Positions 26,158-50,866 of a stretch of DNA of 64,000 nt are shown in pieces. The position numbers were made by a program, and so were the translations under genes. The stretch comes from a virus. Below the pieces are notes generated by a model. It searched no databases. It was not told the origin of the DNA and saw nothing but the letters and a program-made list of their open reading frames with translations. Where the stretch lies: IMG/VR virus record IMGVR_UViG_3300032242_001280; one strand, 5' to 3'. Within the stretch, counting starts at the first letter, position 1. Each line of letters opens with the position of its first letter.

Positions 26158-26187
26158 TCTGCTAAATATTTCTGTTGGTGGATTAAT

Positions 26188-30633: not shown

Positions 30634-30672
30634 CCAATCTGTAAATAAATACATTAGAAAATAGGTGGGAAG

Positions 30673-34946: not shown

Positions 34947-34975
34947 TTGACATTTTTTAATCATTATATTATAAT
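34947..34975 (+). promoter_or_regulatory. Consensus sigma70 promoter of the GT/radical-SAM operon
   Basis: TTGACA (34947-52), 17 nt, TATAAT (34970-75); ATG follows 6 nt later. Confidence 0.88.
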
Positions 34976-34981
34976 TTTAAT

Positions 34982-35329
34982 ATGAACACAGAACAATTGC
35001 GCGATGCAGCCAGAGTAGCGTATGATCGTGAACTGGCAAAACAAAATATCAATACTGCCATAGAATCACGAATGACCGTAAATTATAATGGCGGTATGTT
35101 TATTGTAACCCAAGAACTTATTGCTTTCTTAAATGCTTGGCTGCCAACTCCAAATCTTTCACTAAATTCTGATGGCAAAATTTATATGATGGATGCCTAT
35201 GATGTTCCAGTTAAAGTTCTTCCATACGAACTATTGCACATTTGTCAACGCCGTTGGTATGAAGTAATGAACGAGTTTGCAGCAGAATACTCAGATTTTA
35301 CAAAGATTCGTAATGCAAAACAACTATGA
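34982..35329 (+). CDS. Hypothetical protein, first gene of the modification operon
   Basis: 115-aa ORF directly after a perfect sigma70 promoter; overlaps the next gene. Confidence 0.75.
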   Translation: MNTEQLRDAARVAYDRELAKQNINTAIESRMTVNYNGGMFIVTQELIAFLNAWLPTPNLSLNSDGKIYMMDAYDVPVKVLPYELLHICQRRWYEVMNEFAAEYSDFTKIRNAKQL

Positions 35330-36074
35330 AGGTTGTCTTATTGTTGCGTTTGATACAAAAGAAATCAATTATACGCAACAGGCAATTGAAGCTGCCAATC
35401 GAGTTAAGAAATATATAGGCATCCCTGTTACCATTGTAACAGATGATGAGACATTAGATTATAATAAAATAATTGTTGAACGACCAGTCAACAATAAACG
35501 AGGGTTCATAAACAATCCTCCACGCGATTGGTATAATCTTGTAAGAACTCAGTTATATGATTTAACGCCGTATGATCGTACTCTTGTAATTGATAGTGAT
35601 TTTTATATTTCAACAAGCTCGTTATTACCACATATTAAATCTTCTCGTGATTTTTTAATAGCAAAAGAAATATATGACATAGCGCGAGGCAAAACAAAAA
35701 TTGAAAAGATACACAGCAGTCCTATACCTATGTATTGGGCAACTATAATGATTTTTAATAAATCTAGTGAAGCTGCGACTATATTTGAAATGGCAAAAAA
35801 TATTCAAAAACACTATGCATATTATGCTTCGCTATATGGGTTTCACACAAAACCTGTTAGAAATGATTATATTTTTAGTATTGCTTGTCATTTAACAGGT
35901 GGTTATGGATTACGAGATTATGGATTAAAAAATTATCCATTAATAAACTGTGATGCTAGATCAGAATATGTTAGTTGGAAAGATAATAAGTTAATCTATT
36001 ACTATGAAGGTAACCAATGGATAAACCGCTTATCTAATGTTGATTTACATTTGATGAATAAGGACCAAATATGA
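35313..36074 (+). CDS. Putative GT-A glycosyltransferase (GT8-like)
   Basis: LYDLTPYDRTLVIDSDF with a DxD motif. Start moved to ATG 35313 (MQNNYEG); the ORF track start is a TTG. Confidence 0.7.
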   Translation: MQNNYEGCLIVAFDTKEINYTQQAIEAANRVKKYIGIPVTIVTDDETLDYNKIIVERPVNNKRGFINNPPRDWYNLVRTQLYDLTPYDRTLVIDSDFYISTSSLLPHIKSSRDFLIAKEIYDIARGKTKIEKIHSSPIPMYWATIMIFNKSSEAATIFEMAKNIQKHYAYYASLYGFHTKPVRNDYIFSIACHLTGGYGLRDYGLKNYPLINCDARSEYVSWKDNKLIYYYEGNQWINRLSNVDLHLMNKDQI

Positions 36075-36913
36075 GTCAGGGCTACCTTTGTATCGCACAG
36101 AATAGTAGTAGCGTTGATTATCTTCGCATGGCATATCTTCAAGCATTAAGTTGTAAGTTGACACAATCACATGTGCGCAATTTTAGTGTTATTGTAGACA
36201 AAGAAACCGCAGAACAAGTCACAGATAATCAACGAGAAGTATTTGATAAAGTTATTATTCTTAAAAAAGATTTAGCTGAAAATAGTAAAATAAAACAGCA
36301 AAACGAATCGCAGGTATTTGCTTGCAGTCCATATAAAGAAACCATAAAAACAGAAGCAGATATGTTATTTACATGTGATGTAAGTTGGTTATGGAACATA
36401 TATTCGCAATATATAATGAATTTTACGCAAACCGTTTATACATATAACCATGATATAATTACTAATCGCAGTCAACGAAAATTGTTTGATGATAGTTTTC
36501 TGCCAAACATCTATAGCGCATGGACATACTTTAGCTATGATTTGCAATCTAAGAAATTTTATGATACAATACGCATGATAATGGATGATTGGAATTGGTA
36601 TAGAGATGAATATCTAATAAACTGTAGATATGAAACTCCTAGAACAGACGAAGTATATGCAATAGCTGCTCGTGCTATGAATGCGCCACTTGATAATATA
36701 AATTTTGGATTTGTTCACATGAAATCACAGTTACAAAATATTCGAATACATGATTGGACTAAAGAAATATATACAGAAGTTCATGATGATTTTGGGGTAG
36801 TGTTAGGATTTCATCGGCAAACGCGACCGCTACACTATCATCTTAAAACATTTGTAACCGATGAATTAATAGATAGATATGAGTATGGCTTCAAAAAACA
36901 ACTTTTGGGATGA
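36071..36913 (+). CDS. Putative GT-A glycosyltransferase, paralogue of the preceding gene
   Basis: SPYKETIKTEADMLF aligns with the TPYDRTLVIDSDF motif (ExD variant); ATGA overlap with the upstream stop. Confidence 0.65.
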   Translation: MSQGYLCIAQNSSSVDYLRMAYLQALSCKLTQSHVRNFSVIVDKETAEQVTDNQREVFDKVIILKKDLAENSKIKQQNESQVFACSPYKETIKTEADMLFTCDVSWLWNIYSQYIMNFTQTVYTYNHDIITNRSQRKLFDDSFLPNIYSAWTYFSYDLQSKKFYDTIRMIMDDWNWYRDEYLINCRYETPRTDEVYAIAARAMNAPLDNINFGFVHMKSQLQNIRIHDWTKEIYTEVHDDFGVVLGFHRQTRPLHYHLKTFVTDELIDRYEYGFKKQLLG

Positions 36914-37238
36914 AGTAGACGCAGGTTTAGCAAAGTTAGTTCCGCATATTTCTGAAATAAAATATCGTTTATATTATAATACAGAAACTATGCGCGGTGA
37001 AATAATATCTGCGGATGAATTGGAAGGTCCGTGGGTAGATTTTCCCGCTGAAAATATCGGTATACCACCTATGGATTGGCTTGTTAAAAAAGATGGCACT
37101 ATCACACGAGAAGTGTTTACTCTTCCAACTAGAAAAAAATTAATAAAAGGCGGCACTATGTTTTATACACTTAAAAATGATTATCAATTTGCAGTAGATG
37201 CAGATTATCCAGCAGCAATAGGATGGTATTATGACTAA
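36879..37238 (+). CDS. Hypothetical protein
   Basis: 119-aa ORF overlapping both neighbours within the operon. Confidence 0.7.
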   Translation: MSMASKNNFWDEVDAGLAKLVPHISEIKYRLYYNTETMRGEIISADELEGPWVDFPAENIGIPPMDWLVKKDGTITREVFTLPTRKKLIKGGTMFYTLKNDYQFAVDADYPAAIGWYYD

Positions 37239-38169
37239 TATCATTGACATTGCAGAATTAGATTGTATATTTTTAAGTTATAAAGAACCAAATGCAGACG
37301 CTAATTGGGCATTTGTGCGAAGCATTGCGCCATGGGTAAAGCGCGTCCATGGCATAGAAGGCAGTGATGCAGCACACAAGGCTGCTGGATTAGCCAGTGA
37401 AACTGATAGATTTATATTAATTGATGGAGATAATCAGCCTGATCCTGAATTTTTTAATCAACAACTGCGCCTTGCACCAGATAGTGAACACTGTGTATTT
37501 CGTTGGCGAGCAAAGAACGCTATCAACGGTCTTTGCTATGGCAATGGCGGTATCAGCAGTTGGACTAAAGACTTTGTTGCTAATATGCGAACACACGAAG
37601 CTACAGATGGCGGCGATGAAACCGTTGTAGAATTCTGCTATGATAAAGATTATTGGGCAATGCATGATGTATGGAGCACAACTGTTCCAAATTATAGCCC
37701 ACAACAAGCATGGCAAGCAGGATTTCGTGAAGGAGTTAAGTTATGTCTAGATCGCGGTCGTCGTCCATCTGCTGAAGAATTTGAAACTGCTGCATGGAGG
37801 GGTAATCGAGAAAATTTGGTTATTTGGTGCAGTGTTGGTACAGATGTTGAATTTGGAAAATGGGCAATCCTTGGAGCAAGACAAGGCGCATATATGACAA
37901 TGTTTGATGATAGTTGGGATTATCGTGAAGTTCGTGACTTCACAAAATTAGAAAAATTATGGGACGATACCGCAGATGATCAATTTAAAAATATTGACCA
38001 TTACGGAAATGTTTTGCGTAAAAGATTAGATTTAGACATCGTTACACTTTCGCCAGAGCACAGTGCTTGGTATAAAAAACATCAACGCCCATATTATAAC
38101 ATTGATATTATGCTTCCAGAGCGAGATTTTATTAGGACATTACATGAAACAGCTAGACAATTCAGGTGA
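37231..38169 (+). CDS. Putative GT-A glycosyltransferase
   Basis: IFLSYKEPNA...RVHGIEGSDAAH...FILIDGDN (DxD)...YGNGG...AWQAGFREGVKL. Confidence 0.7.
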   Translation: MTNIIDIAELDCIFLSYKEPNADANWAFVRSIAPWVKRVHGIEGSDAAHKAAGLASETDRFILIDGDNQPDPEFFNQQLRLAPDSEHCVFRWRAKNAINGLCYGNGGISSWTKDFVANMRTHEATDGGDETVVEFCYDKDYWAMHDVWSTTVPNYSPQQAWQAGFREGVKLCLDRGRRPSAEEFETAAWRGNRENLVIWCSVGTDVEFGKWAILGARQGAYMTMFDDSWDYREVRDFTKLEKLWDDTADDQFKNIDHYGNVLRKRLDLDIVTLSPEHSAWYKKHQRPYYNIDIMLPERDFIRTLHETARQFR

Positions 38170-39574
38170 TAAGGCTACCGCTGATGAGAGCGGCGTTCTG
38201 CACAGCGACTTCATGTCTAGTGCCGAACAAATGCAAGCAAAGCTTGGACCTGCTCTTTGCTTGGCAAAGTGGCAGCAAACAAGTTTGCACCTAACAACTG
38301 GTCATACCAACAGTTGTTATCACCCACCACTGCACAGGATTGATGCCAATGAGTTACAAGATAACCCCAGTGCGCTCCATAACACCGCTCATAAAAAGAC
38401 CCAGAGAGCACGAATGCTTAGTGGAGAGAAGCCAGAAGAATGTTCATATTGCTGGCGAGTTGAAGCCACGGGAAACCTATCCGACCGACATTACAGATCG
38501 GGAGAACCTTGGGCTGCTGAGAAGTTTAGCGAGATTTTGGTTCAAGACCCTCTAACATGGAATACAAATCCTGCTTATGTAGAAGTAAATTTTAATAGTG
38601 CTTGTAATTTAAAATGTTCATATTGTAGTCCACAATTCAGCAGTAGTTGGATGAAAGAAATCAATGAATACGGTGCTTATCCTACTTCTAATAGTCATAA
38701 TAGTCCTGCTTACTTTCGTGGTGATCGTAAACCTATACCGAATAGGGAAGATAATCCTTATGTCGATGCGTTCTGGCGATGGTGGCCCGAACTCTACCCT
38801 AACCTAAAACATTTCCGCATGACAGGTGGCGAGCCTCTTATGGATCGCAATACCTATCGCGTATTTGATTATGTGTTAGACCATCCAAAGAAAGATTTAC
38901 ATCTTAATGTAACTAGTAACTTTAGCCAAGATGAATATGTGTTTGACAAATATCTAACTTATGTCAATCATATGTGTGGCAACGGTGTGTTAGAACATTT
39001 TATGCAGTTTGTATCTATTGATGGATTTGGGGAACGCGCCGAATATGCTCGTCATGGATTAGATTTTGCTTTAATGAAAAGTAATGTAGAAAAATTTTTG
39101 ACCGATGTGCCTTATCGCAATAGTGTAACATTTATTATTACAATGAACTCTCTTAATGTTACTAGCTTGCAAGATTTGCTAGAATGGATTCTTGAACTTC
39201 GTGCTAAACACAGCAAAACTTATCAGCGTGTTTGGTTTGATACTCCTATTTTGCGCGAACCAGCTTGGCAATGCATAGATCAGTTGCCACAAAGTTATAC
39301 TTGGAAATTAGAAAAAATTGTAGAATGGATGCGTCCACAGATTGAAACTCTTGATACTAGATTTAATGGCTTCAAAGATTATGAAATTTCTAAGTTACAA
39401 CGAGTCGTAGATTGGAAACGCGATAATCAAAAGAACGATACTGTTGTTCAAGCAGATTTCTATCGTTTCTTTAATGAACATGATGCTCGTCGTAAGACAA
39501 ATTTTCTTGAAACATTTCCAGAAATGAGCGATTGGTATAACAACTGTAAGTATTGGGCAGATAATGCGAAGTAA
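38144..39574 (+). CDS. Radical SAM protein with N-terminal Twitch/SPASM-like Cys motif (paralogue 1)
   Basis: CNLKCSYC (CxxxCxxC) and TGGEP; N-terminal CLAKW...SCYH...CSYCW. Start placed at ATG 38144 after AGGA. Confidence 0.92.
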   Translation: MKQLDNSGDKATADESGVLHSDFMSSAEQMQAKLGPALCLAKWQQTSLHLTTGHTNSCYHPPLHRIDANELQDNPSALHNTAHKKTQRARMLSGEKPEECSYCWRVEATGNLSDRHYRSGEPWAAEKFSEILVQDPLTWNTNPAYVEVNFNSACNLKCSYCSPQFSSSWMKEINEYGAYPTSNSHNSPAYFRGDRKPIPNREDNPYVDAFWRWWPELYPNLKHFRMTGGEPLMDRNTYRVFDYVLDHPKKDLHLNVTSNFSQDEYVFDKYLTYVNHMCGNGVLEHFMQFVSIDGFGERAEYARHGLDFALMKSNVEKFLTDVPYRNSVTFIITMNSLNVTSLQDLLEWILELRAKHSKTYQRVWFDTPILREPAWQCIDQLPQSYTWKLEKIVEWMRPQIETLDTRFNGFKDYEISKLQRVVDWKRDNQKNDTVVQADFYRFFNEHDARRKTNFLETFPEMSDWYNNCKYWADNAK

Positions 39575-40919
39575 GAAACCAGACGAAACATTTCAAGAAT
39601 ATAAACAGCGTGTGTTAGATAGCAAAAGTGCATCTTTTTGTGGCGCTAAGTGGTATAATGCAACCATTTGGTTAGGCAGTGGACAGACCACAAGCTGTCA
39701 TCACCCGCTGCCACATAAAGTAAGTGTAGAACAGGTAATGAATAATCCTGCTGCGCTGCATAATACACCAGAAAAGAAAGCACAGCGTCTACAGATGCAA
39801 AAGGGTGAACGACCAAGTGGTTGTGAATATTGCTGGCGCATAGAAGATACTAGCACAACTACCATCAGTGATCGCCCTTATAAAAGTATGATATTCAGCG
39901 AGGAAGAGTTAAATGAAGCATTTAACCTCCCAAGTGAAAGTGATGTAAATTTAAGAACATTGGAGATAGCTTTTGACCGCACTTGCAATTTTGCCTGCTC
40001 TTATTGTAATCCTGCATTTAGCACGACCTGGGTCCGAGATATTAAGACGAATGGCAGTTATATCGGGCTTCACAGCGATGGGCGTAATCATTTTACGCAT
40101 CCTCATGATGGCAGTCAGCTTTATGGATATACCGATACTAATCCATATGTAGAAGCATTCTTTAAATGGTGGGAAAGTGATCTACACAAGACTCTTCGTG
40201 AGTTGCGTATTACAGGCGGTGAACCGCTTATGAGCGGACATACTTGGAAACTACTAGATTGGTTTAAAAACAATCGCGGCAAAAGCAATACTAAGATTGC
40301 CATCAATAGCAATCTTGGATTAGAACCAAAGAAACTTGACGAATTTATAGATGCTGTTCGTGGAATGGATATCGAAGTTTATACCAGTTGTGAAAGCATG
40401 ACTGCCCAAGCTGAATATATTCGTGATGGTTTAAATTATTATCAATGGTTTGACAATATGGTCAAACTACATAGCAGCGGTTCAGTAAAGCAACTGCATG
40501 TAATGGCAACTATTAATGGGCTATGCTTAACCAAACTTCCTGATTTTCTTGCGCATATGTTAGATTTTAAACAAGCATATGGTCGTGATAGTTTAACAGT
40601 TACTCTTAATATCTTGCGGTTTCCAAGTTTTCAGAGTCCATTAGTTATGCCTGTAGAAATTAAACAAGGGTGTGCAACAAGGTTGCAACAATTTTTAGAT
40701 AGTCTTGGCGATAACCATTGGTTGCATCAAATGGAGATAGAACATATTAAGCGTCTTATAGAATACTTAAATAGTACTGAAGCGCCGCATGCTGGTGCTA
40801 GTTCCATGGATGTATTGCAGAAAGATTTTAAACAATTCTATCAACAATACGACCAGAGGCGCAACAAAGATTTTATTAATACATTCCCAGAATTGAAAGA
40901 ATGGTACAATGACTTATGA
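39564..40919 (+). CDS. Radical SAM protein (paralogue 2)
   Basis: CNFACSYC and TGGEP; N-terminal CGAKW...SCHH...CEYCW. Confidence 0.92.
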   Translation: MRSKKPDETFQEYKQRVLDSKSASFCGAKWYNATIWLGSGQTTSCHHPLPHKVSVEQVMNNPAALHNTPEKKAQRLQMQKGERPSGCEYCWRIEDTSTTTISDRPYKSMIFSEEELNEAFNLPSESDVNLRTLEIAFDRTCNFACSYCNPAFSTTWVRDIKTNGSYIGLHSDGRNHFTHPHDGSQLYGYTDTNPYVEAFFKWWESDLHKTLRELRITGGEPLMSGHTWKLLDWFKNNRGKSNTKIAINSNLGLEPKKLDEFIDAVRGMDIEVYTSCESMTAQAEYIRDGLNYYQWFDNMVKLHSSGSVKQLHVMATINGLCLTKLPDFLAHMLDFKQAYGRDSLTVTLNILRFPSFQSPLVMPVEIKQGCATRLQQFLDSLGDNHWLHQMEIEHIKRLIEYLNSTEAPHAGASSMDVLQKDFKQFYQQYDQRRNKDFINTFPELKEWYNDL

Positions 40920-42216
40920 TTACAATGACCGAACACCAGAATTTATTAGCTTAAATAAATTAACAGAAAAAGAAAAATTTTTACTTATGGAAAGTAAAAC
41001 TTTTTGTATGTTGCCTTGGACACATCTTCATGCATTTCCTACAGGACAAGCATATGTGTGTTGCAATTCTGAAATGAAATATCCAATTGGTAATTTGCGG
41101 GAATCTACAATAAAAGAAGTGTGGAACAGCGATTCCATGAAAAAAACTAGAACTAACATGGTCACTGAAACTAAATGTGGTTCGTGCGTGAGGTGTTACG
41201 AGCAAGAAGACGCTGGTTTTTTTAGTATGCGCAATAGTAGTAATAAAAGATTCGGGCATAATATTAAGCGTGTTGATAAAACACTAGAAGATGGGCATCT
41301 TGAAGATTTAACTTTATCATATTGGGATATTCGTTTTTCAAATTTATGTAATTTTCGATGCCGTAGCTGTGGTCATATTTTTAGTAGCAATTGGTATGAT
41401 GACCAAGTTAAACTGATAGGAGATGAAAAAAATGTTGATTATTTTAAAAAAAATAGTAAAAGAATAGAATACGCTGGAAGAACTCAATTAGATATATGGG
41501 AACAATTAGAACCACATTTAGATTATGTTGAACACATTTATTTTGCTGGCGGTGAACCACTTATAATGGAAGAACATTATAAAATTCTCAATGCATTATT
41601 AAAAAAAGGAATGAATAAGGTTAGGCTTATTTACAATACCAATTTCAGTGAACTTCGCTACAAAAAACAAAATGTTTTAGAGTTGTGGAATGAGTTTTCT
41701 AATGTTTGTGTAGGGGCCAGCCTTGATGCAATGGGTCCGTTGGCAGAATTAATGCGTAAAGGCACTGATTGGGAACAAACTGAGCGCAATCGTGAAGAAA
41801 TGTTGCGAATATGTCCGCAGGTTGATTTTTATATTAGTCCTACCCTGAGTGTAATGAATGTTTGGCAACTACCAAGTTTTCATCGTGATTGGGTACAGAA
41901 AGGTTTCATAAAACCACAAGATTTAAATGTTAATATTTTGCAAGACGCACCTTTCTTTAGGATTGATATATTGCCAGATCAATGCAAAGTAGATATTCAA
42001 GAAATGTATTTAGAACATATTGAATGGCTTAAACCGCTTGATAATTTAAAAAGAGCCGTGACTGGCTTTGAAAGTGCAGTTAACTTTATGATGGCAGATG
42101 ACAAATCACATCTTATACCACAATTTTGGGCTAGAACGAATAAATTAGATAGTATTCGTGGAGAAAAATTGTTAGACCTTGTTCCAGAGTTAAGGAATCT
42201 TGATGGAAAAAAATAA
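40909..42216 (+). CDS. Radical SAM protein (paralogue 3)
   Basis: CNFRCRSC and AGGEP; N-terminal CMLPW...VCC...CVRC. Confidence 0.92.
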   Translation: MTYDYNDRTPEFISLNKLTEKEKFLLMESKTFCMLPWTHLHAFPTGQAYVCCNSEMKYPIGNLRESTIKEVWNSDSMKKTRTNMVTETKCGSCVRCYEQEDAGFFSMRNSSNKRFGHNIKRVDKTLEDGHLEDLTLSYWDIRFSNLCNFRCRSCGHIFSSNWYDDQVKLIGDEKNVDYFKKNSKRIEYAGRTQLDIWEQLEPHLDYVEHIYFAGGEPLIMEEHYKILNALLKKGMNKVRLIYNTNFSELRYKKQNVLELWNEFSNVCVGASLDAMGPLAELMRKGTDWEQTERNREEMLRICPQVDFYISPTLSVMNVWQLPSFHRDWVQKGFIKPQDLNVNILQDAPFFRIDILPDQCKVDIQEMYLEHIEWLKPLDNLKRAVTGFESAVNFMMADDKSHLIPQFWARTNKLDSIRGEKLLDLVPELRNLDGKK

Positions 42217-43372
42217 CTTTTGTATATTGCCATTTGTTTCTATTGAGGCAGACCCGATGGGTAAATGCAAGGTATGCTGTTTAAGCTATGAAACTATACC
42301 TGATATTGATTTAAAAAAAAATACACTAAGTGAAGCTTTCAATAGTTCTTATATGAACAATCTTCGTCAAAGTTTTTTAAATAATGAAAAACCTGCCAAT
42401 TGTAATCGCTGTTGGTCAGAGGAAGCAAGTGGCAGAACTAGTAAAAGAATGCATAGTCATGCTAGGTTGCGTGAGATACTAGGTGATACAAAATTTACAC
42501 ATAGTGCCGATGGTAGTCTTATGTTTATAGATTTGAAACTTGGAAATATATGTAATCTTAAGTGTCGTATATGTGGTAGCTATAGCAGTTCAAAATGGGC
42601 ACAAGAAGAAATTGATATCTATACTGGCAATCAAACTGCTAAAGACAATCTTGAAAAAGGTCGTTGGCCTCGCGAATCAAAAAGATTTTGGGAAGATTTA
42701 ACACACTTACTTGCAACTTCAAAATACTTTGAATTTACTGGCGGCGAACCCTTTTTAATTGACGAGCATTTTACTCTTTTAGAAATTGCAGTTGAAATGG
42801 GTTTTGCTAAAGATATTGAAATTCATTATAATACAAATCTTACTACATTTCCAAAGCGTGGATTAGAAATTTGGCCACATTTTAAACTGGTTGAAATAGC
42901 AGTAAGTGTGGATGATATCGGTCCACGATTTGAATATCAACGATATGGAGCATCATGGGACAAAGCAATGGATAATCTTCAACGCCTCCGTGATCTTCGC
43001 AGCGCAAGCACAAATATTAAATTACAGTTATGCTCGACTATTAATGTTCAAAATTTTTATTACATTGATGAAATGTGTGAATGGATTTTTCAACAAAAAT
43101 TTAATTATGTTTATTTTAATGTTCTGCACGATGCTTGGCATTTTAGTATTAGCAGATTAAATGATACTGCAAAAGAACTTATTAATAGTAAATTTAAAGC
43201 ATATGTTGGTCCATATTCGAGTGAAGTTACTAATCTATTGCTTTTTATGAATCAAGGCGAAGGCAGTGATTGTAAAAAACTTGTTCAAACATTAAAAAAC
43301 AGTGACATTCAACGCAAACAAAAATTTAGTGATCATCATAGTGAGATAGCGGCGGCAATAGGATATGAATGA
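42203..43372 (+). CDS. Radical SAM protein (paralogue 4)
   Basis: CNLKCRIC and TGGEP; N-terminal CILPF...VCC...CNRC. ATG at 42203. Confidence 0.92.
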   Translation: MEKNNFCILPFVSIEADPMGKCKVCCLSYETIPDIDLKKNTLSEAFNSSYMNNLRQSFLNNEKPANCNRCWSEEASGRTSKRMHSHARLREILGDTKFTHSADGSLMFIDLKLGNICNLKCRICGSYSSSKWAQEEIDIYTGNQTAKDNLEKGRWPRESKRFWEDLTHLLATSKYFEFTGGEPFLIDEHFTLLEIAVEMGFAKDIEIHYNTNLTTFPKRGLEIWPHFKLVEIAVSVDDIGPRFEYQRYGASWDKAMDNLQRLRDLRSASTNIKLQLCSTINVQNFYYIDEMCEWIFQQKFNYVYFNVLHDAWHFSISRLNDTAKELINSKFKAYVGPYSSEVTNLLLFMNQGEGSDCKKLVQTLKNSDIQRKQKFSDHHSEIAAAIGYE

Positions 43373-44666
43373 TTTTTGTTTGGCTCCATTTACGCATACC
43401 TATATCTCGCCACAAGGTGAACGGCGGCTGTGTTGTGCGTCACGAGAACCTGCACAAAATTTTAAACAGTATATTGATACTGCTGGCGGTGATGGACAAT
43501 TTACGCCGCTCACGCTAAAGGATTGGTGGAATGGCGAACATATTAGGCAAATTAGAAAGCAATGGTTGGCTGGTGAGGTTCCATCAGCATGTGAGGTCTG
43601 CGATAAAAAGCTACTTAACACTTCTGTATATCGTGATTACTTTGGACATCTTTTTGGTCATCTACGAGATGCTGCGGTGGCTAATACAGATGCTAATGGC
43701 TATACAACCTTAGAACCAATCTCATGGGACTATCGTTATAGTAATGTATGCAACTTTAAGTGCCGTATGTGTGGCGATATGCTAAGTTCGGCATGGGAAG
43801 TTGAAGTTCGTAAAAACAATATGGTTGATCTAACCAATCCAAAAAATCATTGGATGCAGCCAAAGAACCGCCATGCTATTCGTGATTTTACTCGTGATGT
43901 GGTCATACCAGAATTTCGTGCGGCTATTGAAAATAAAAGTGTTCGTGAAATCTATTGGGTAGGCGGCGAGCCGCTGCTATATGATGAGCACTGGACATTT
44001 ATGCGTCGAATAATAGAACTTGACTATGCAGACCAAGTTCGTGTAAGATATAATACAAATCTTAGTTATTGTAAAGATAATAAAGGTACGCTATGGGAAT
44101 TGTTAGACAATTTTCCACATTGGGAAATATGTGCAAGTTTAGATGGAACAGGAGCGATAGGTGAGTATATTAGAACTGGTCTTAATTATAATGATTGGCT
44201 CGTTGATTTTCGACAGGGGATACAGCATCAGCGAAACTCTCGCCAAATGCGCATTGACTTTACTCTTACTTTACTTGGTTTATTTGACCTTACCAATGTT
44301 ATTAGTCTTGTTAATGATCTTAATGTTTCATTATTGAGCAAAGTAGTATTTGCTTTTTCTCCTGATATTCTCTTAAGTCCACTAGCACTGCCTAGAACGG
44401 TTCTAGCGCCGCTATTAAACGATATACAAGACCGCATCAAGCCACTTATTACTCATCGTACCCAAAGTTTATGGGACACCCTAGAACATCTCAAAACTCG
44501 TCCTACTTTTGAAGAACAGTTTCCTGATACCTACAAGCGAGAAGCAATTCAAGGAAAAAAACATATTTTAAAATTGGAATTGTTGAGAAAAGATGCTAAA
44601 ATAACAATAGAAGATATTTTAAATGCTAGCCCAGAAGTGTTAGCATGGTGGCGGGGTATATCATGA
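43365..44666 (+). CDS. Radical SAM protein (paralogue 5)
   Basis: CNFKCRMC and VGGEP; N-terminal CLAPF...LCC...CEVC. Confidence 0.92.
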   Translation: MNDFCLAPFTHTYISPQGERRLCCASREPAQNFKQYIDTAGGDGQFTPLTLKDWWNGEHIRQIRKQWLAGEVPSACEVCDKKLLNTSVYRDYFGHLFGHLRDAAVANTDANGYTTLEPISWDYRYSNVCNFKCRMCGDMLSSAWEVEVRKNNMVDLTNPKNHWMQPKNRHAIRDFTRDVVIPEFRAAIENKSVREIYWVGGEPLLYDEHWTFMRRIIELDYADQVRVRYNTNLSYCKDNKGTLWELLDNFPHWEICASLDGTGAIGEYIRTGLNYNDWLVDFRQGIQHQRNSRQMRIDFTLTLLGLFDLTNVISLVNDLNVSLLSKVVFAFSPDILLSPLALPRTVLAPLLNDIQDRIKPLITHRTQSLWDTLEHLKTRPTFEEQFPDTYKREAIQGKKHILKLELLRKDAKITIEDILNASPEVLAWWRGIS

Positions 44667-45784
44667 GCGAAGTAATTGTAACATTACGAAATCCATTAAA
44701 CAAGGATGAAAAATTATCTTATTACATTAAACCTAATCCTAGTCAATTAGCTAGAGATTGGGTTGATGCTCTTAAGAAAGAATTAACAAAAAATAGTGAA
44801 CTTGAAAAAAATTATTGTTGGCATGGATGGTCAAAGACTAAACGAAATCTTGATTATCTTGCTGCTCAGTTATCTAAACATGCTACAAGGATTTGGGCAT
44901 TTAATGAATTAGGTGTTTGGCAATCGCAAGGATTATCAACATTTGATATTCGTACTAATTATACGGCAGCAGATATTATGTTGCCTATTACTGGTATAGA
45001 TGAAGATGGAAAACGAGGTGGCGGTCCAAACCATGATGTAATGAATGCTGTTCATAATTACTTTGAACATCTACAGGGAACCGTTGAAAACCTTAGTCCA
45101 TATTATAAACTTGCTACGCCAGAAGTCAAATATAGTATTAGACAAATTAATAATCTTTGTCATGAAATAGAAACACTGTGCTTGAGTTTACGAAAGGAAG
45201 TATATGCACCAGATTGGGTTCGCCCATCACAAATAACAACTTTTTTAAATGCCATGAGATATAGTTTAACACCAGAACATCGTCAAGGTTTTATTGAAAA
45301 TGGATATGATCGCCGTTTTGCACATGTGTACATGCATTGGACTCAGATAGGCAAGACGCTCAAGGAAGTATTTCATGATGAGGGTGCACCAGATTTAGAT
45401 CAGGCAACTTGCGATGCTATTACTCACCTTCAATATTATAGCGGTGAATTTGATGTTGAATGGGGGCGAGATGTTATATATAATAAACATCCTTGGCATA
45501 GAAAAGAAATGGATGAATATATAGCATGGTTAACTCGTCAAGGATACGATGTCAATGATCCTATGTTAAGTTTAGGTCATCTTGAACTAGGTCATGTAGA
45601 TTTAGAGCGCAGTTTTGGCACACATGATCCATATAAGATATGGGATATGATGAGTCCAATGCTTGATATCTATAGCATAGAAGTTGACGGGATTAAAGCA
45701 GTTTATGATTATAGCTGGGCAGATGAAGACTATGAGCAACGACAAATTAACTATCTAATGCCAGGTTATAAACGATATGTTTGA
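44663..45784 (+). CDS. Hypothetical protein associated with the radical SAM cluster
   Basis: ATG 44663 overlaps the upstream stop (ATGA); MNAVHNYFE...IRQINNLCHEIE...YMHWTQIGKT motifs, family not recognised. Confidence 0.75.
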   Translation: MSEVIVTLRNPLNKDEKLSYYIKPNPSQLARDWVDALKKELTKNSELEKNYCWHGWSKTKRNLDYLAAQLSKHATRIWAFNELGVWQSQGLSTFDIRTNYTAADIMLPITGIDEDGKRGGGPNHDVMNAVHNYFEHLQGTVENLSPYYKLATPEVKYSIRQINNLCHEIETLCLSLRKEVYAPDWVRPSQITTFLNAMRYSLTPEHRQGFIENGYDRRFAHVYMHWTQIGKTLKEVFHDEGAPDLDQATCDAITHLQYYSGEFDVEWGRDVIYNKHPWHRKEMDEYIAWLTRQGYDVNDPMLSLGHLELGHVDLERSFGTHDPYKIWDMMSPMLDIYSIEVDGIKAVYDYSWADEDYEQRQINYLMPGYKRYV

Positions 45785-47531
45785 TAAACATTGGTACGAT
45801 TATGATGATTGTACCGATATTAAACAGCTAATTGAAGAAGCCAAGAAAAACAGCAGAACTGAATATGTATGGCTTTGTCATCATGCAGTAGATTATTCTA
45901 CTTTTAATTGGCGCTATCTTCCAAATCGACATCAACAGCATTTTATGCATGCATGGGCAAGTCATGATAATTCAGACTGTCTGACTACATGGCTTGTGCC
46001 GATCAATCAAGAGTTTGACAATACTGAAAAAGTATTCCATAGCGGTTTATTGCCTATCTTATATCAACCCAATGGCAAACTATGGCAGTGGAAAAAAGAC
46101 CCACTAATAGACTATTCTACTTTTAATTTTAACTGGTTTCCAAGCGTATGGGATTGGGGATATAACCATGAATTTACCATGCTTGGCAAAGAACGATTGA
46201 GCTATACTACGCTTAGCAGAAGTAGCACAAATATAAAATATCATGCCGCTAACCTAACTTATGATGGACTGTACTATGATATTTGTTGTATCGATACTAA
46301 CACCCATCCGTTACCAAACCATGATTATAAAGTTCGATTAATCACAACGATGGAAGAAGCGTTGAAGTTAGCTTTAAAACGAGCAACTAAACCTTGGCTA
46401 TGGGTAGTCAGTGATGTATGCGACTATGATGAATTTAATTTTACTTGGTTGCCAGAAGAAGGCGAAGAACATCAAGTACATTGCTGGCCAAGCGGCACAT
46501 GTGAAAAAGGCGACACATTTTTAATTCATGTTCCAACTTATCTTGGCGAATGGAATCCTTCTTACAACTTTAGCCATGATCCTGTAAAAAGAAAAAGATG
46601 GCCCGTGTATAATGTCAGTGAAAATTGTCTAGCATGGGATTTAAATAACTCGCCTAGAAACAAATCAATATACACATTATATTCTTTTACTGGAGTAATA
46701 GATTATCCAGATGTTTGTTTATGGGAAAAACGACCAGTAGTTAGTTTAAATCGCAGCAATAGTAGCTGCCTTGTTCCTCGTGATTGTATTGTTGAAAAAG
46801 AAATATATGAATACCCGCATCTGCTGCGCTATCCAGAATATGGTTTTGATATTCCTGTGGATGTAATTTTTATTCACAACGATGAAAGTTGTGCAGAAGA
46901 AAACTGGATAAAATTAAAAACGCTATGCCCAAGTGCAAAAATATTAAGTGGCGTTAACGGCAGATTGAAAGCATATAAAACTGCTGCCATAAGAAGCGAT
47001 ACTATTTGGTTTATTGCGGTTTTTGCTAAATGCAATATGAAAGAAAATTTTAAAGATTTAAATTGGCAACCAGATTTTTGGCAAGAACCTAAACATTATA
47101 TTTTTCATAATCATAATCTTAATACAGGTTTGATATATGGACATATGGCACCTATTGCGTATCATGCTAAATTACTGCATAAGAATACAGGTGGTCTTGA
47201 CATGACGCTAGCTCAACGCCATACGACCGTGCCGATAACCATAAGCGAAACTAATTTAGAAGACGATCCTTGGTTAACTTGGCGTACAGCATTTCGCGAA
47301 GTTGTTAAAATACTTCATTTTAGTAAAAATAATCCAAGTATTGAGAATGAATATCGACTGTGGTCTTGGCGTAATATTGCTAAAGGCAAAGATTCTATGT
47401 GGCAAAAGTATGCAGTTAAACACGCCGAAGAATATTATGCTGCATGCGGCGACAACGAAGAAGCATTAATGTTGACAAGCGAATGGGATTGGCTGTATGA
47501 GCACTACTTGCGTCTTACAGTGAATCCATAA
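45777..47531 (+). CDS. Multi-repeat glycosyltransferase-like protein
   Basis: Repeated 'T-YVW...DY--FN--WLP' modules; the C-terminal domain parallels 37231..38169 (IFIHNDE, YGH, WRTAFREVVK), but the DxD is degenerate. Confidence 0.6.
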   Translation: MFDKHWYDYDDCTDIKQLIEEAKKNSRTEYVWLCHHAVDYSTFNWRYLPNRHQQHFMHAWASHDNSDCLTTWLVPINQEFDNTEKVFHSGLLPILYQPNGKLWQWKKDPLIDYSTFNFNWFPSVWDWGYNHEFTMLGKERLSYTTLSRSSTNIKYHAANLTYDGLYYDICCIDTNTHPLPNHDYKVRLITTMEEALKLALKRATKPWLWVVSDVCDYDEFNFTWLPEEGEEHQVHCWPSGTCEKGDTFLIHVPTYLGEWNPSYNFSHDPVKRKRWPVYNVSENCLAWDLNNSPRNKSIYTLYSFTGVIDYPDVCLWEKRPVVSLNRSNSSCLVPRDCIVEKEIYEYPHLLRYPEYGFDIPVDVIFIHNDESCAEENWIKLKTLCPSAKILSGVNGRLKAYKTAAIRSDTIWFIAVFAKCNMKENFKDLNWQPDFWQEPKHYIFHNHNLNTGLIYGHMAPIAYHAKLLHKNTGGLDMTLAQRHTTVPITISETNLEDDPWLTWRTAFREVVKILHFSKNNPSIENEYRLWSWRNIAKGKDSMWQKYAVKHAEEYYAACGDNEEALMLTSEWDWLYEHYLRLTVNP

Positions 47532-48621
47532 CAGTTTTAATAATAACATTAATATCAGCATCAGAAAGATGCCAGTGACTTGGCAAACTTATAACGCGCT
47601 GGTTATTAGTAATATTTTCAGCAGTTGAACATGGTTGATATCCATAAGACTTTACAAAATCTTCACGGTTAAGCGCCTTGGTATAGTGACTGCTATACTG
47701 AATGTTGGCTTCTTTTAACGCTGATTTGACATTTTCTTGTCGCTGCGGCGCAATAGAAAACGAATAATAATTCCATGTTCCCCATGGTTTGCGAATAGGT
47801 AAATCTACTTTGTCTGGATAATTTCTAAAATGATTATAATACAATTGGCATATTGCCATTTTTTTTGGAATCATTTCTGCGTAATAATAAATTTTAGAAA
47901 CTAAGGTAGCAGCTTGTGTGGATAGCATACGAAAGTTAAGCCCATGCAATTCTATATTTCCGTTTGATCCAGTAGTTGTTTTTCCAATGGTGCACACTGC
48001 TTGCATAATTGTTGAATGTATAGATTTGCTGATAAGCGCACCACCACCACTTCCACCAAAATTTTTAAGAGGATTAAAACTTAGGCAAATTGCATCAGCA
48101 ATAGTTTGGTCATATTGATCTGAGCATATTCCAAAGCTATGTGCAGCATCGATAATCCATTTAACATCATACTTGTTGCACCAGCGGCGGACCTTATCCA
48201 GTTCAACGCCTTGTCCATACAAGTCAACTGTGACAAGCGCACTTATCTGGTCGCCATATTTTTTATACGCATCATCTAGCAAATCAATATCTAATAGCCA
48301 ACTGCTATCAATATCAACAAATGTAGGTATACCGCCAACCGCTATTATAGCTTGTGCAGTAGCAGCATATGTCAGTGCTGGAAGCAGCACACGAGTGCCA
48401 GGTTTGATGTACAAGGCCATCAGAGCGGCTTGTATCGCACTGGTTCCGCTATTAGTAAGTACTACTTCTGCGCCATTATAATGCGTTTTAATATACTTTT
48501 CTAAAAGATCATGTGCCTCGCCGCTATAGAATTGACCGCTGCGGTAAACATTATCCATCCCGCCAAGTATGGCAAGTCTGCAATCTTCATATTGCTCCGT
48601 TAGGTTATAATAATTAATCAT
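47515..48621 (-). CDS. DegT/DnrJ/EryC1/StrS family PLP-dependent sugar aminotransferase
   Basis: NSGTSA, PALTYAATAQA, PTFVDID, VDLYGQ, IIDAAHS, SFNPLKNFGG (PLP lysine), ISLP. Confidence 0.93.
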   Translation of the reverse strand: MINYYNLTEQYEDCRLAILGGMDNVYRSGQFYSGEAHDLLEKYIKTHYNGAEVVLTNSGTSAIQAALMALYIKPGTRVLLPALTYAATAQAIIAVGGIPTFVDIDSSWLLDIDLLDDAYKKYGDQISALVTVDLYGQGVELDKVRRWCNKYDVKWIIDAAHSFGICSDQYDQTIADAICLSFNPLKNFGGSGGGALISKSIHSTIMQAVCTIGKTTTGSNGNIELHGLNFRMLSTQAATLVSKIYYYAEMIPKKMAICQLYYNHFRNYPDKVDLPIRKPWGTWNYYSFSIAPQRQENVKSALKEANIQYSSHYTKALNREDFVKSYGYQPCSTAENITNNQRVISLPSHWHLSDADINVIIKTVMDSL

Positions 48622-49493
48622 TTAATAAGTTTTTGGATGCCGTTTTCCAAATTAATTTTTGGCGTATATCCAAGATACTGCACTGCTTTACGGATATCCA
48701 TTGCACCACGACGAGGCATGTCATCTGCTAAGTCACGACCGCATATGATTTCACTCTTGGTCCAAGTCCAATCTTTAATAACATTTGCTGCTTCTTGCAG
48801 GGATCGTCCTTCACCAAAGCTGACATTGGCAATGACTTTGTTGACAGGGGTAACAGCAGCGTTGCAAATAGCTTGTGATAGGTCTTCTACATGGGTAAAG
48901 TCAAGTTTTGCCATAGGGTCATCGACATGAATAGGTTCATGTTCTGCAGCAGCCTTTAACCATTTGGCGATAACACGATTGTTATCATCTCTTTTGCCGT
49001 ATACAGCAGTAGGACGAATGATTACCCAATCATTAGCAATGTCTTGTACCAATCTTTCACATGCCAACTTTGCCTTGCCATAGGCATTGACTGGTCGCAG
49101 TGGATCAGTTTCCTGAACCGTGCCAATCCAGTTGCCATATACCATGCTGCTGCTTATATAAACCATCTTTGCATCAGGATAAGCAGTCAACATATGTAAG
49201 GTGCTTTGTATAGCATTCTTCCACGCCGCTACACCATCTCTAGCGAACGATGCTTGATTAGGATGGCATGCTAAATGAACGATGACATCTACATCTTGAA
49301 TTACAGTGCTCGCACAGTCTGCATTAATCCAATCATCATATGCAAAGTCCATATAACGACCGCGAGCAAGATACAAATCTTGCTTGATAAATCGAATATC
49401 ATCAATTATAGTAACTGCATGTCCAGCATCTTTTAACCGTTTTACAACATGGTGACCGATAAAACCAAATCCACCTGTAACTAGTACATGCAT
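48618..49493 (-). CDS. NAD-dependent nucleotide-sugar epimerase/dehydratase (extended SDR)
   Basis: VLVTGGFGFIG, SSSMVYG, YGKAK (YxxxK), DFTHVED. Confidence 0.93.
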   Translation of the reverse strand: MHVLVTGGFGFIGHHVVKRLKDAGHAVTIIDDIRFIKQDLYLARGRYMDFAYDDWINADCASTVIQDVDVIVHLACHPNQASFARDGVAAWKNAIQSTLHMLTAYPDAKMVYISSSMVYGNWIGTVQETDPLRPVNAYGKAKLACERLVQDIANDWVIIRPTAVYGKRDDNNRVIAKWLKAAAEHEPIHVDDPMAKLDFTHVEDLSQAICNAAVTPVNKVIANVSFGEGRSLQEAANVIKDWTWTKSEIICGRDLADDMPRRGAMDIRKAVQYLGYTPKINLENGIQKLIK

Positions 49494-49494
49494 A

Positions 49495-50379
49495 TTAAAC
49501 CGCCATTTCTGCTGTAATTGCTGGATGATGGCTATAATTCATTAAACGAATGTCTTCCATCTGTGCTGACCAAATATCTTTTACATCACTTAAATCAAGA
49601 AATGGAAGAGGATATGGTTTACGACTCAACTGTTCCATAACCTGCCCAACATGATTATTATAGATATGAACATCACCAAATGTCAAAATCAATTCACCTA
49701 CTTGTGCACCAATCGTCTTGGCAACTAAGTGTGTAAGTAGCGCATAACTTGCGATATTAAATGGCACACCTAAAAACAAATCAGCACTGCGTTGATACAT
49801 CTGGCAACTTAAAATATTTTTACGAATATAAAATTGCGCAAACATATGACAAGGCGGTAGCGCCATTTCTTTTAGTTCACCAGGATTCCATGCTGTGATA
49901 ATGTGACGGCGACCTGCTGGGTCTGCAATCAATCCATCGATTAAATCTTTTAATTGGTCTACTTCATCATAATTGCGAACTAGTGCGCCACTTTTAAATG
50001 GCGGAGTATTGTGATCTACATAGCGCCAATGACGCCATTGTACACCATATACACGACCCAAATCGCCAGGATAACGAGACTTTGGAAGCCAATAGCTTGC
50101 GTTAGCGTTTGCAGTCCAGATGGTTTTCTTTGCTTCATCTCTTGTGCCATGTAATATCTCTGCCAATCGTCGCTCATCGCCACTACCTTCAATAAACCAA
50201 AGTAATTCACTAACCACGCTCTTCCATGCAAGTTTCTTTGTTGTAACTGCTGGAAATCCTTCTTGTAGATTGTAGCGCAACTGCTCGCCAAATAAACTAA
50301 CAGTACCAACACCAGTTCTATCGATGCTTTGTGGTCCAGTTAGGATAATTTTTTTACATAGGTCATTATAATTTTGCAT
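49495..50379 (-). CDS. thyA: Thymidylate synthase
   Basis: DRTGVGT, ELLWF, GRRHI, MALPPCH, YQRSADLFLGVPFN, GDVHIY. Confidence 0.97.
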   Translation of the reverse strand: MQNYNDLCKKIILTGPQSIDRTGVGTVSLFGEQLRYNLQEGFPAVTTKKLAWKSVVSELLWFIEGSGDERRLAEILHGTRDEAKKTIWTANANASYWLPKSRYPGDLGRVYGVQWRHWRYVDHNTPPFKSGALVRNYDEVDQLKDLIDGLIADPAGRRHIITAWNPGELKEMALPPCHMFAQFYIRKNILSCQMYQRSADLFLGVPFNIASYALLTHLVAKTIGAQVGELILTFGDVHIYNNHVGQVMEQLSRKPYPLPFLDLSDVKDIWSAQMEDIRLMNYSHHPAITAEMAV

Positions 50380-50866
50380 ACTTCCACACCTGAAATACTT
50401 TATCTTTGCCGTAGGTTTCCCAATCCATTTGGAAATTCTGTAGTAAGTCTACCACATCTACGCTTACATCACAATTATAATTATCATCAAATTTAGTCAT
50501 ATATATTTGTCGAAATAAATGTTTAGTGCTATCAATAAGTTTTGCACCGCCTATAATCCATATATCTTTATCAGGATAATTTGCTTTTAATACAGCTAAA
50601 CTTTGCTCAATATAGTTGCCATGAATGATAGTATGCGCATCACGAAAACTTTCAACTGGTTGATTGGTCACAACACAGCAATGGCGGTCTGGCAGAGGTT
50701 TTGGCATCTTAGGGTCTAGCCATGTGTTGCTGCCCATTACTACAATATGATTGCGGGTATTGGTAGAAAACCATTGCATATCTTGCTTGTCATAGGGCCA
50801 AGGAAGGCTTCCGCCTTGTCCTATACCGCCGTTTTTATCTACTGCAAAGATTGCCTTAATCATCAC
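50366..50866 (-). CDS. folA: Dihydrofolate reductase
   Basis: AVDKNGGIG-GGSLPW...DMQWF...VVMG-NTW...PLPDR...IIGG; adjacent to thyA. Confidence 0.95.
   Translation of the reverse strand: MMIKAIFAVDKNGGIGQGGSLPWPYDKQDMQWFSTNTRNHIVVMGSNTWLDPKMPKPLPDRHCCVVTNQPVESFRDAHTIIHGNYIEQSLAVLKANYPDKDIWIIGGAKLIDSTKHLFRQIYMTKFDDNYNCDVSVDVVDLLQNFQMDWETYGKDKVFQVWKYAKL

Follow-up and report, generated by a model that had tools for sequence, protein, structure and literature searches.

Glycosyltransferase-like and radical SAM genes joined in a conserved operon next to the tail-fibre genes of a freshwater jumbo phage

What use does a bacteriophage make of five radical S-adenosylmethionine (SAM) enzymes which are encoded in a row, flanked by glycosyltransferase-like genes and placed behind the genes for its tail fibres? 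The question is raised by the IMG/VR record IMGVR_UViG_3300032242_001280, of which a stretch of 64,000 nucleotides, here called the window, was analysed. The virus is an uncultured freshwater jumbo myophage; the metagenome runs containing this sequence are from freshwater or lakes, with no RNA run among those listed. The locus is an operon of 12 plus-strand genes (34982-47531), denoted A115, B265, C280, D119, E312, R1 through R5, F379 and G584. According to the listing of open reading frames (ORFs) neighbouring genes overlap by 4 to 53 nt at all junctions. The upstream genes at 22702-33579, directly ahead of the operon, match tail-fibre PHROGs. Between the fibres and A115, a protein of 310 aa rich in Ser, Thr, Gly and Asn is encoded. 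At the 3'-end G584 shares 17 nt with a convergent gene for a DegT-type aminotransferase, which is followed by genes for an SDR epimerase, ThyA and DHFR. The ORF listing and the family matches bear out the layout given in an initial annotation made from the sequence alone, i.e., an operon of 12 genes with overlapping junctions which lies behind fibre genes and converges on DegT, epimerase, thyA and DHFR. On the whole we incline, with due caution, to read the operon as a soluble cytoplasmic pathway which assembles a sugar-containing decoration and subsequently edits it by radical chemistry. Virus-encoded glycosylation and sugar tailoring by radical SAM enzymes are known separately; new is that a fixed phage operon, based on a catalogued radical SAM family, combines the two.

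All five radical SAM genes claimed initially are confirmed by family matches. R1 through R5 match the NCBIfam family NF033640 (N_Twi_rSAM, twitch domain-containing radical SAM protein) from end to end with 277-391 bits, the curated cut-off being 170 bits. A Pfam SPASM match at residues 5-96 precedes the Radical_SAM core; in R3 the SPASM match covers residues 33-96 and Radical_SAM residues 142-296. The PF04055 scores of R3, R4 and R5 are above or near the cut-off, those of R1 and R2 are below. Seven cysteines are invariant in R1 through R5 and in distant relatives, four in the twitch domain (C33, C51, C93, C96) and three in the CX3CX2C motif (C147, C151, C154). R1 and R2, which have just one Cys at the second ligand site, constitute one subtype, R3 to R5 another. 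The paralogues are 18-27% identical to R3; they are old duplicates and not recent copies. The family is large, with more than 7,700 close homologues in metagenomes for one paralogue alone, and was found above the cut-off in none of 14 model genomes. The ORF of R1 is open from a GTG at 38063.

Which chemistry may such enzymes catalyze? When a profile of R3 orthologues was compared with solved structures the best match was the twitch domain of BtrN (PDB 4M7T, E 7.6e-4). The N-terminal domain of R3 aligns with the C-terminal twitch domain of BtrN, and all four Cys ligands of the auxiliary cluster are matched. BtrN is the 2-deoxy-scyllo-inosamine dehydrogenase of butirosin biosynthesis, which oxidises a hydroxyl of an aminocyclitol ahead of the DegT-type transaminase BtrS/BtrR. 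The analogy to BtrN and its aminotransferase, which had been drawn initially, hereby obtains a concrete basis, and a DegT aminotransferase gene indeed is located near the operon. The differences are considerable. The domain order is permuted, i.e., the twitch domain is N-terminal in R1 through R5 and C-terminal in BtrN; five paralogues are present instead of one, each with an additional C-terminal helical region of about 120 residues; and the DegT gene is on the other strand and not conserved in relatives. In desosamine biosynthesis the radical SAM enzyme DesII, which is devoid of an auxiliary cluster domain, acts on a nucleoside diphosphate (NDP)-sugar supplied by the DegT-type aminotransferase DesI. 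No sequence relationship of DesII to R1 through R5 was detected.

The second constituent of the operon are four proteins, B265, C280, E312 and G584, for which profile, fold and paralogy evidence support an assignment as GT-A-type proteins. The earlier designation "four glycosyltransferase (GT)-like genes" stands on this evidence; it did not find support in curated families as A115, B265, C280, D119, E312, F379 and G584 have no matches at all in Pfam, PHROGs and NCBIfam. The GT-A fold itself is borne out by a glycogenin profile match, by a model of E312 and by matches in BFVD. The family profiles of B265 and C280 align by hhalign with 99.4% probability (E 2.4e-21); judged by sequence, the two are paralogues. 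The C280 profile reaches glycogenin-1, a GT8 enzyme, with an E-value of 6.8e-5 over the N-terminal 112 positions including the DxD site. B265 retains a DSD motif with invariant D106 and D108; C280, in contrast, has EAD in this position, and the C-terminal halves are unrelated to glycogenin. Neither B265 nor C280 attains the gathering threshold of PF01501 (GT8), and six-frame scans of a complete 338-kb relative (G001) and of the Ralstonia phage RsoM2USA yielded no PF01501 match at the positions of their orthologues. Profile searches against solved structures returned nothing for B265 and only noise for E312 and the N-terminal half of G584. The true start of B265 probably is an ATG at 35313.

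E312 is the most conserved gene of the operon apart from those for the radical SAM enzymes. Its AlphaFold model (pLDDT 85.7) has a Rossmann-like GT-A domain at residues 4-155, and D65 and D67 of the DGD motif, which follows the fourth strand, are invariant. In structural comparisons by VIA-align B4GALNT1 ranks at the top (Z 9.1, root-mean-square deviation 3.3, 141 residues), the Z-scores ranging from 9.1 to 6.6. Without exception the 50 best chains belong either to GT-A glycosyltransferases or to sugar nucleotidyltransferases. The top Foldseek match in the PDB is A64R from PBCV-1, a capsid-glycosylating enzyme (E 2e-3), and the BFVD matches are viral glycosyltransferases, including one from Che8. 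The fold matches are a mixture of glycosyltransferases and nucleotidyltransferases; the nucleotidyltransferase motif GxGxR was not seen on reading the E312 sequence. The C-terminal 230 residues of G584 constitute a paralogue of E312, which they match in BLASTP (E 1e-12). Where E312 has I/V-DGD, all ten G584 orthologues examined carry AVFAK (10/10). The missing DxD suggests that the C-terminal domain of G584 is metal-independent or non-catalytic. The N-terminal domain of G584 is repeated two to four times in five related loci (L007, L014, L015, L017, L023), and the orthologues have 968-1,345 aa.

Is this gene arrangement fortuitous? Using R3, 35 related loci were retrieved from IMG/VR. The order fibres, 310-aa protein, A115, B265, C280, (D119), E312, R1 through R5, F379, G584 and convergent sugar genes is kept in 32 of these 35, so the arrangement is not a matter of chance. 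Among relatives R1 through R5 and E312 share 44-60% identity, the fibres 35-45%, and B265 and C280 are down to about 30%. In distant members of the clade the same operon contains a NodU/TobZ-type carbamoyltransferase (3/3 loci examined), an O-methyltransferase-like protein and a 2-oxoglutarate (2OG) oxygenase. The complete 338-kb relative encodes six N-twitch radical SAM enzymes, five SDRs and one DegT protein, and no sugar-1-phosphate nucleotidyltransferase was found in it; hence the sugars would come from the NDP-sugar pools of the host. In some relatives an extra, solitary N-twitch radical SAM gene is located far from the cassette (G001:C1:270687-271748; G005:C1:57966-59135, L034). Three more SDR epimerase/dehydratase genes are clustered at G001:C1:42400-50676, which suggests a second sugar locus.

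The linkage extends to cultured phages. RsoM2USA is evidence of a more independent kind than the related loci: gp354, gp353, gp352 and gp350 are the orthologues of A115, B265, C280 and E312, and gp349 is an N-twitch radical SAM protein. As in the window, the module is positioned downstream of the baseplate genes. It adjoins a GDP-mannose 4,6-dehydratase (gp358) and a virion protein confirmed by mass spectrometry [gp356 (PMC8504454)]. In the unrelated Vibrio phage K566 (255 kb) the only two Pfam GT8 genes reside in an 8-kb cluster together with four of its six N-twitch radical SAM genes. The neighbours in K566 are not significantly similar to E312, F379, B265 or C280 by hhalign; therefore, the K566 link rests on its own Pfam GT8 matches. 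A gene annotated as lipid A acyltransferase PagP comes after this cluster (L112 18990-19179). N-twitch radical SAM and glycosyltransferase genes are thus linked in three phage lineages, the clade of the window, RsoM2USA and K566. Radical SAM genes do co-occur with GT or sugar genes in relatives and in two further lineages, as one would expect from the earlier proposal of a joint system.

The operon has a promoter of its own. In the 38-bp gap ahead of A115 we find a perfect sigma-70-type sequence, the -10 box of which ends 6 nt in front of the A115 ATG; a Shine-Dalgarno sequence is absent. Both hexamers and the 6-nt spacing to the ATG are kept in 11 of 11 related loci in an ungapped alignment, while the flanks have diverged. 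Because of the short distance between the -10 box and the start codon the mRNA of A115, the first gene of a jumbo phage operon, probably is leaderless. With this conserved host-type promoter the operon has a start of its own, so that a reading as a plain extension of the fibre operon is not supported. A second promoter-like site (11/12 consensus) is located at 37244-37271, just within the start of E312; possibly it is an internal promoter for E312 or the radical SAM genes, or a chance match.

Table 1. Positions in the window of the promoter, the operon genes and the convergent genes.
Feature	Position	Strand	Evidence
Sigma-70-type promoter TTGACA-17-TATAAT	34947..34975	+	12/12 consensus match (scan)
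A115, small conserved protein, first operon gene	34982..35329	+	orthologues in 21 loci
B265, GT8-like GT-A protein, DSD motif	35277..36074	+	hhalign to C280 family
C280, GT8-like GT-A protein, EAD at DxD position	36071..36913	+	profile match to glycogenin-1
D119, small poorly conserved protein	36879..37238	+	orthologues of full length restricted to the close relatives L016 and L017
E312, GT-A-fold transferase, DGD motif, C-terminal helical domain	37231..38169	+	AlphaFold2 model, VIA, Foldseek
R1, N-terminal-twitch radical SAM	38144..39574	+	NF033640 E 4e-98, 329 bits
R2, N-terminal-twitch radical SAM	39564..40919	+	NF033640 E 4.1e-90, 303 bits
R3, N-terminal-twitch radical SAM	40909..42216	+	NF033640 E 6.8e-117, 391 bits
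R4, N-terminal-twitch radical SAM	42200..43372	+	NF033640 E 2.1e-99, 333 bits
R5, N-terminal-twitch radical SAM	43365..44666	+	NF033640 E 3.1e-82, 277 bits
F379, cyclophilin-like barrel with helical insertion (model)	44645..45784	+	pLDDT 81.8
G584, N-terminal repeated domains and C-terminal E312-like GT-A domain	45777..47531	+	BLASTP to E312
DegT/DnrJ/EryC1-family pyridoxal phosphate (PLP) sugar aminotransferase	47515..48621	-	PF01041 E 4.9e-58, profile 11-359/360
Extended-SDR epimerase/dehydratase/reductase, short (291 aa)	48618..49493	-	PF01370 E 6.3e-34
ThyA	49495..50379	-	NF002497 334 vs 327 bits; TIGR03284 320 vs 108
DHFR	50366..50866	-	DHFR_1 E 8.4e-26

The convergent genes demand a more differentiated view. 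All sugar-specific equivalogs of the DegT family (PseC, LegC, WecE, DesI) remain under their cut-offs, PseC being best with 137 vs 423 bits, and the SDR likewise reaches no equivalog cut-off. The DegT proteins of relatives are between 97% and 25% identical; some relatives lack the gene, and in others distant DegT types take its place. RsoM2USA and K566 have none. A fixed partnership of DegT with the operon is not supported. ThyA and DHFR are neighbours outside of the system and belong to the ordinary thymidylate cycle; the pair resembles the td/frd arrangement of T4. The initial annotation had considered a dTDP-linked sugar on account of thyA and DHFR, a suggestion which we drop, as ThyA is a thymidylate-synthase equivalog of nucleotide metabolism, paired with DHFR and encoded on the opposite strand. 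A perfect TTGACA-18-TATAAT is present on the minus strand at 49686-49657, in the 3' part of thyA and about 160 nt upstream of the SDR gene. This match, which lies within coding sequence, could drive the SDR-DegT pair separately from thyA and DHFR.

N-twitch radical SAM enzymes are not confined to phages. The bacterial members are mainly from Bacteriovoracaceae and other Bdellovibrionota, Saprospiraceae and other Bacteroidota, and Polyangiaceae, and often are tandem paralogues. A Pfam tally of 95 bacterial neighbours is heterogeneous and without a predominant partner; it comprises 7 further radical SAM proteins, 3 GT2, 3 PhyH and a single DegT, carbamoyltransferase and asparagine synthase. Profile hidden Markov models of B265, C280 and E312 had no matches in the bacterial N-twitch loci; F379 had two weak ones. 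Two GT-C genes of the PMT_2/ArnT-like type adjoin one bacterial cluster (L091), together with an ABC-2 transporter and a weak relative of F379. Along with GT2, DegT and the carbamoyltransferase, such neighbours count in favour of a sugar pathway. Six radical SAM-type genes stand in a row in a Halobacteriovorax-like metagenome-assembled genome (MAG; L047 9980-17948), two N-twitch, a short radical SAM, an N-SPASM, a weak and a B12-binding one. In a single Elusimicrobia MAG (L055, L061, L065, L069 and others) dozens of N-twitch radical SAM domains are fused to TPR arrays of 400-700 aa, arranged head to tail, an extreme case of multiplied paralogues. The nine best MAG matches (L036-L044, from Legionellales, Haliscomenobacter, Polynucleobacter, Verrucomicrobia, Rickettsiales and other MAGs) contain the phage cassette, and several of them also have fibre genes. 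They were rejected as bacterial context for this reason and probably are misbinned jumbo-phage contigs.

Gene content, family membership, folds, motifs, synteny and the conservation of the promoter are what the data show; all reactions, the substrate and the acceptor are proposed, as follows. From its own host-type promoter the operon would be expressed as a set of cytoplasmic proteins; family scans recognised no membrane-family match among all 12 products. Four GT-A-type transferases, the two GT8-like paralogues, E312 and G584, would add sugars from host NDP-sugar pools. Five anciently diverged BtrN-like radical SAM enzymes might then act, each one abstracting hydrogen at a separate sugar carbon with the SAM-cleaving CX3CX2C cluster and the four-Cys auxiliary cluster of the N-terminal twitch domain. 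A ketone might result by oxidation; epimerisation, deoxygenation and the formation of C-C or C-X bonds are other conceivable outcomes. The convergent DegT and SDR proteins would turn keto-sugars into amino or epimeric sugars, and the carbamoyltransferase, methyltransferase and 2OG oxygenase of relatives may decorate the product further.

Where is the decoration placed? This is the weakest step. The initial annotation had regarded the acceptor (virion, host surface or DNA) as not decidable from sequence, and our analysis arrives at the same point. We favour a protein of the phage particle which is encoded next door, either the fibres or the 310-aa protein, because the operon adjoins fibre genes in several lineages; this choice is tentative and is made with more doubt than conviction. 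A bolder version has the five N-twitch enzymes editing a glycan that is already attached to such a particle protein, in a position-specific manner after glycosyltransfer. This would yield keto, epimeric, deoxy or cross-linked sugars beyond the reach of NDP-sugar pathways. We consider this version unlikely.

Several observations weigh against a sugar-decorating pathway. No curated family threshold is reached by B265, C280, E312 or G584. Nucleotidyltransferases share the GT-A fold, Z-scores of 7-9 are only middling, and G584 is without a DxD motif. The similarity to BtrN is confined to the twitch domain of about 70 residues with an E-value of about 1e-3. No member of NF033640 has been assigned a reaction, and the family is not named in the papers searched. 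Most of the synteny evidence comes from kin. The bacterial neighbourhoods have no strong conserved sugar partner (GT2 in 3/95), and the TPR-fused copies in Elusimicrobia hint at protein substrates. Finally, the promoter is host-type and probably early, which agrees less well with the decoration of virions than late expression would.

With the same enzymes the phage might instead remodel the core or O-chain of the host lipopolysaccharide (LPS) or another surface glycoconjugate, and thereby block superinfection or prevent trapping of its progeny on debris. We regard a host-envelope acceptor as rather unlikely, yet it deserves serious consideration. A host-type promoter suits early expression; the PagP-like gene follows the K566 cluster, and the bacterial L091 cluster lies beside ArnT-like GT-C genes and an ABC-2 exporter. 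GT8 is a family of LPS-core transferases, and the authors of a pelagimyophage study have proposed such a role for fibre-linked GT8 (PMC7029224). On the other hand, the operon is without a membrane protein, flippase, polymerase, lipid-carrier transferase or exporter, and the core of the cassette is constant across phages with differing fibres and presumably differing hosts. To our knowledge, no radical SAM step exists in LPS synthesis. Somewhat less credible, and in our view quite unlikely, is a modification of protein or peptide in the manner of RiPPs (peptides made by the ribosome and modified after translation), in which the radical SAM enzymes would cross-link, epimerise or oxidise a fibre, A115/D119 or a host protein, with the GT-like proteins glycosylating or scaffolding. 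Enzymes with SPASM or twitch domains mostly act on peptides, the Elusimicrobia copies are fused to TPR arrays, two small conserved ORFs, A115 and D119, are part of the operon, and E312 aligns over two domains with the S-glycosyltransferase SunS (Z 7.5). Yet A115 is not rich in Cys, Ser or Gly, looks folded and has kept 27% identity in RsoM2USA. Pfam and NCBIfam scans revealed neither an RRE/PqqD-like nor a peptide-binding domain in R1 through R5, a dedicated RRE search not having been carried out. Moreover, the twitch domain is closest to that of BtrN, a small-molecule enzyme, and the neighbours DegT, SDR, carbamoyltransferase and GDP-mannose dehydratase are sugar enzymes.

The relationship to BtrN might also be taken literally. 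The operon would then make a small molecule which diffuses and acts on the host or on competitors, for instance a pseudo-oligosaccharide of the aminoglycoside kind or a nucleoside sugar in modified form. Indeed, the set of a BtrN-like radical SAM enzyme, a DegT transaminase, glycosyltransferases and a TobZ/NodU-type carbamoyltransferase resembles aminoglycoside pathways, and in a cyanophage paper an adjacent AHBA_syn/DegT gene and a radical SAM 'maturase' are listed as 'antibiotic synthesis genes' (PMC12801897). Nevertheless, we rate this as improbable: a cyclitol synthase, an exporter and a resistance gene are lacking, the position next to the fibres is constant in many phages, and five paralogous radical SAM enzymes exceed any known aminoglycoside pathway. 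Most improbable of all appears a hypermodification of phage DNA or of the nucleotide pool by base glycosylation followed by radical and PLP chemistry. ThyA, DHFR and other genes of nucleotide metabolism are adjacent, the promoter is host-type and probably early, and Lee et al. are said to have reported in 2018 that pathways for the hypermodification of thymidine employ PLP enzymes and radical SAM enzymes. The DNA-modification reading is weakened by ThyA itself, which passes the cut-offs of thymidylate-synthase equivalogs, is paired with DHFR and is not a hydroxymethylase. Both genes are on the opposite strand. Pfam and NCBIfam scans of the operon found no hydroxymethyluracil kinase, aGPT-Pplase, TET/JBP or DNA-binding domain, and in RsoM2USA and K566 the core of GT and radical SAM genes lies away from ThyA/DHFR-type genes.

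How does a decoration pathway of this kind relate to described viral systems? Like A64R of PBCV-1, the enzymes for the fibril sugars of mimivirus and the virion glycosyltransferases of the Che8 type, the operon encodes soluble GT-A enzymes near or among structural genes. The likeness is at the level of the fold only (about 10-18% identity), and none of those systems is known to involve a radical SAM enzyme. In the host-recognition cluster of pelagimyophages GT8 genes, radical SAM cassettes and sugar genes of the LPS type are likewise mixed next to fibres (Zaragoza-Solas et al., 2020, PMC7029224), which speaks for the proposed pathway. That region was described as hypervariable and only annotated, in contrast to the fixed and ordered 12-gene operon which we observe across a jumbo-phage clade. 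The marine-phage papers mention fibre-linked cassettes of GT8 and radical SAM genes only descriptively (PMC7029224; PMC12801897). By fixing NF033640 in a compact, conserved operon with candidate partners and with counterparts in the cultured phages RsoM2USA and K566 its chemistry and its role, be it that virions are glycosylated, that the host surface is remodelled or that the phage makes a natural product, become testable. Should the particle be decorated, abundant aquatic jumbo phages would join giant eukaryotic viruses and mycobacteriophages in having virus-encoded glycosylation, to which radical chemistry would be added. Radical post-glycosylational editing, if true, would be a new enzymology which tunes adsorption or shields the fibres in aquatic giant phages that rank among the most abundant.

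Three products of the operon do not fall into either enzyme class. A115 is 27% identical to gp354 of RsoM2USA (E 4e-12); neither A115 nor D119 resembles a precursor peptide by eye. F379 probably starts at 44663. Its model is related to cyclophilins with middling VIA Z-scores of 7.2-7.6, and matches to helical bundles are middling as well. Foldseek gave no match for F379, ESM Atlas no usable one and the profile search against solved structures only noise. The F379 family comprises 6,044 unnamed homologues without Pfam domains.

For the region as a whole the cultured-phage collection holds no near-identical DNA, and its tandem repeats are trivial. Its affiliation is indicated by a baseplate wedge protein of 1,130 aa, which matches phrog_10646 (E 6e-275) and is about 35% identical to proteins of Agrobacterium phage Atu_ph07, Salicola phage SCTP-2 and the Klebsiella RaK2 group. 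Between the wedge gene and the fibre genes an ORF of 4,911 aa extends from 6304 to 21039. At the corresponding position RsoM2USA encodes a structural protein of 2,541 aa (ORF361).

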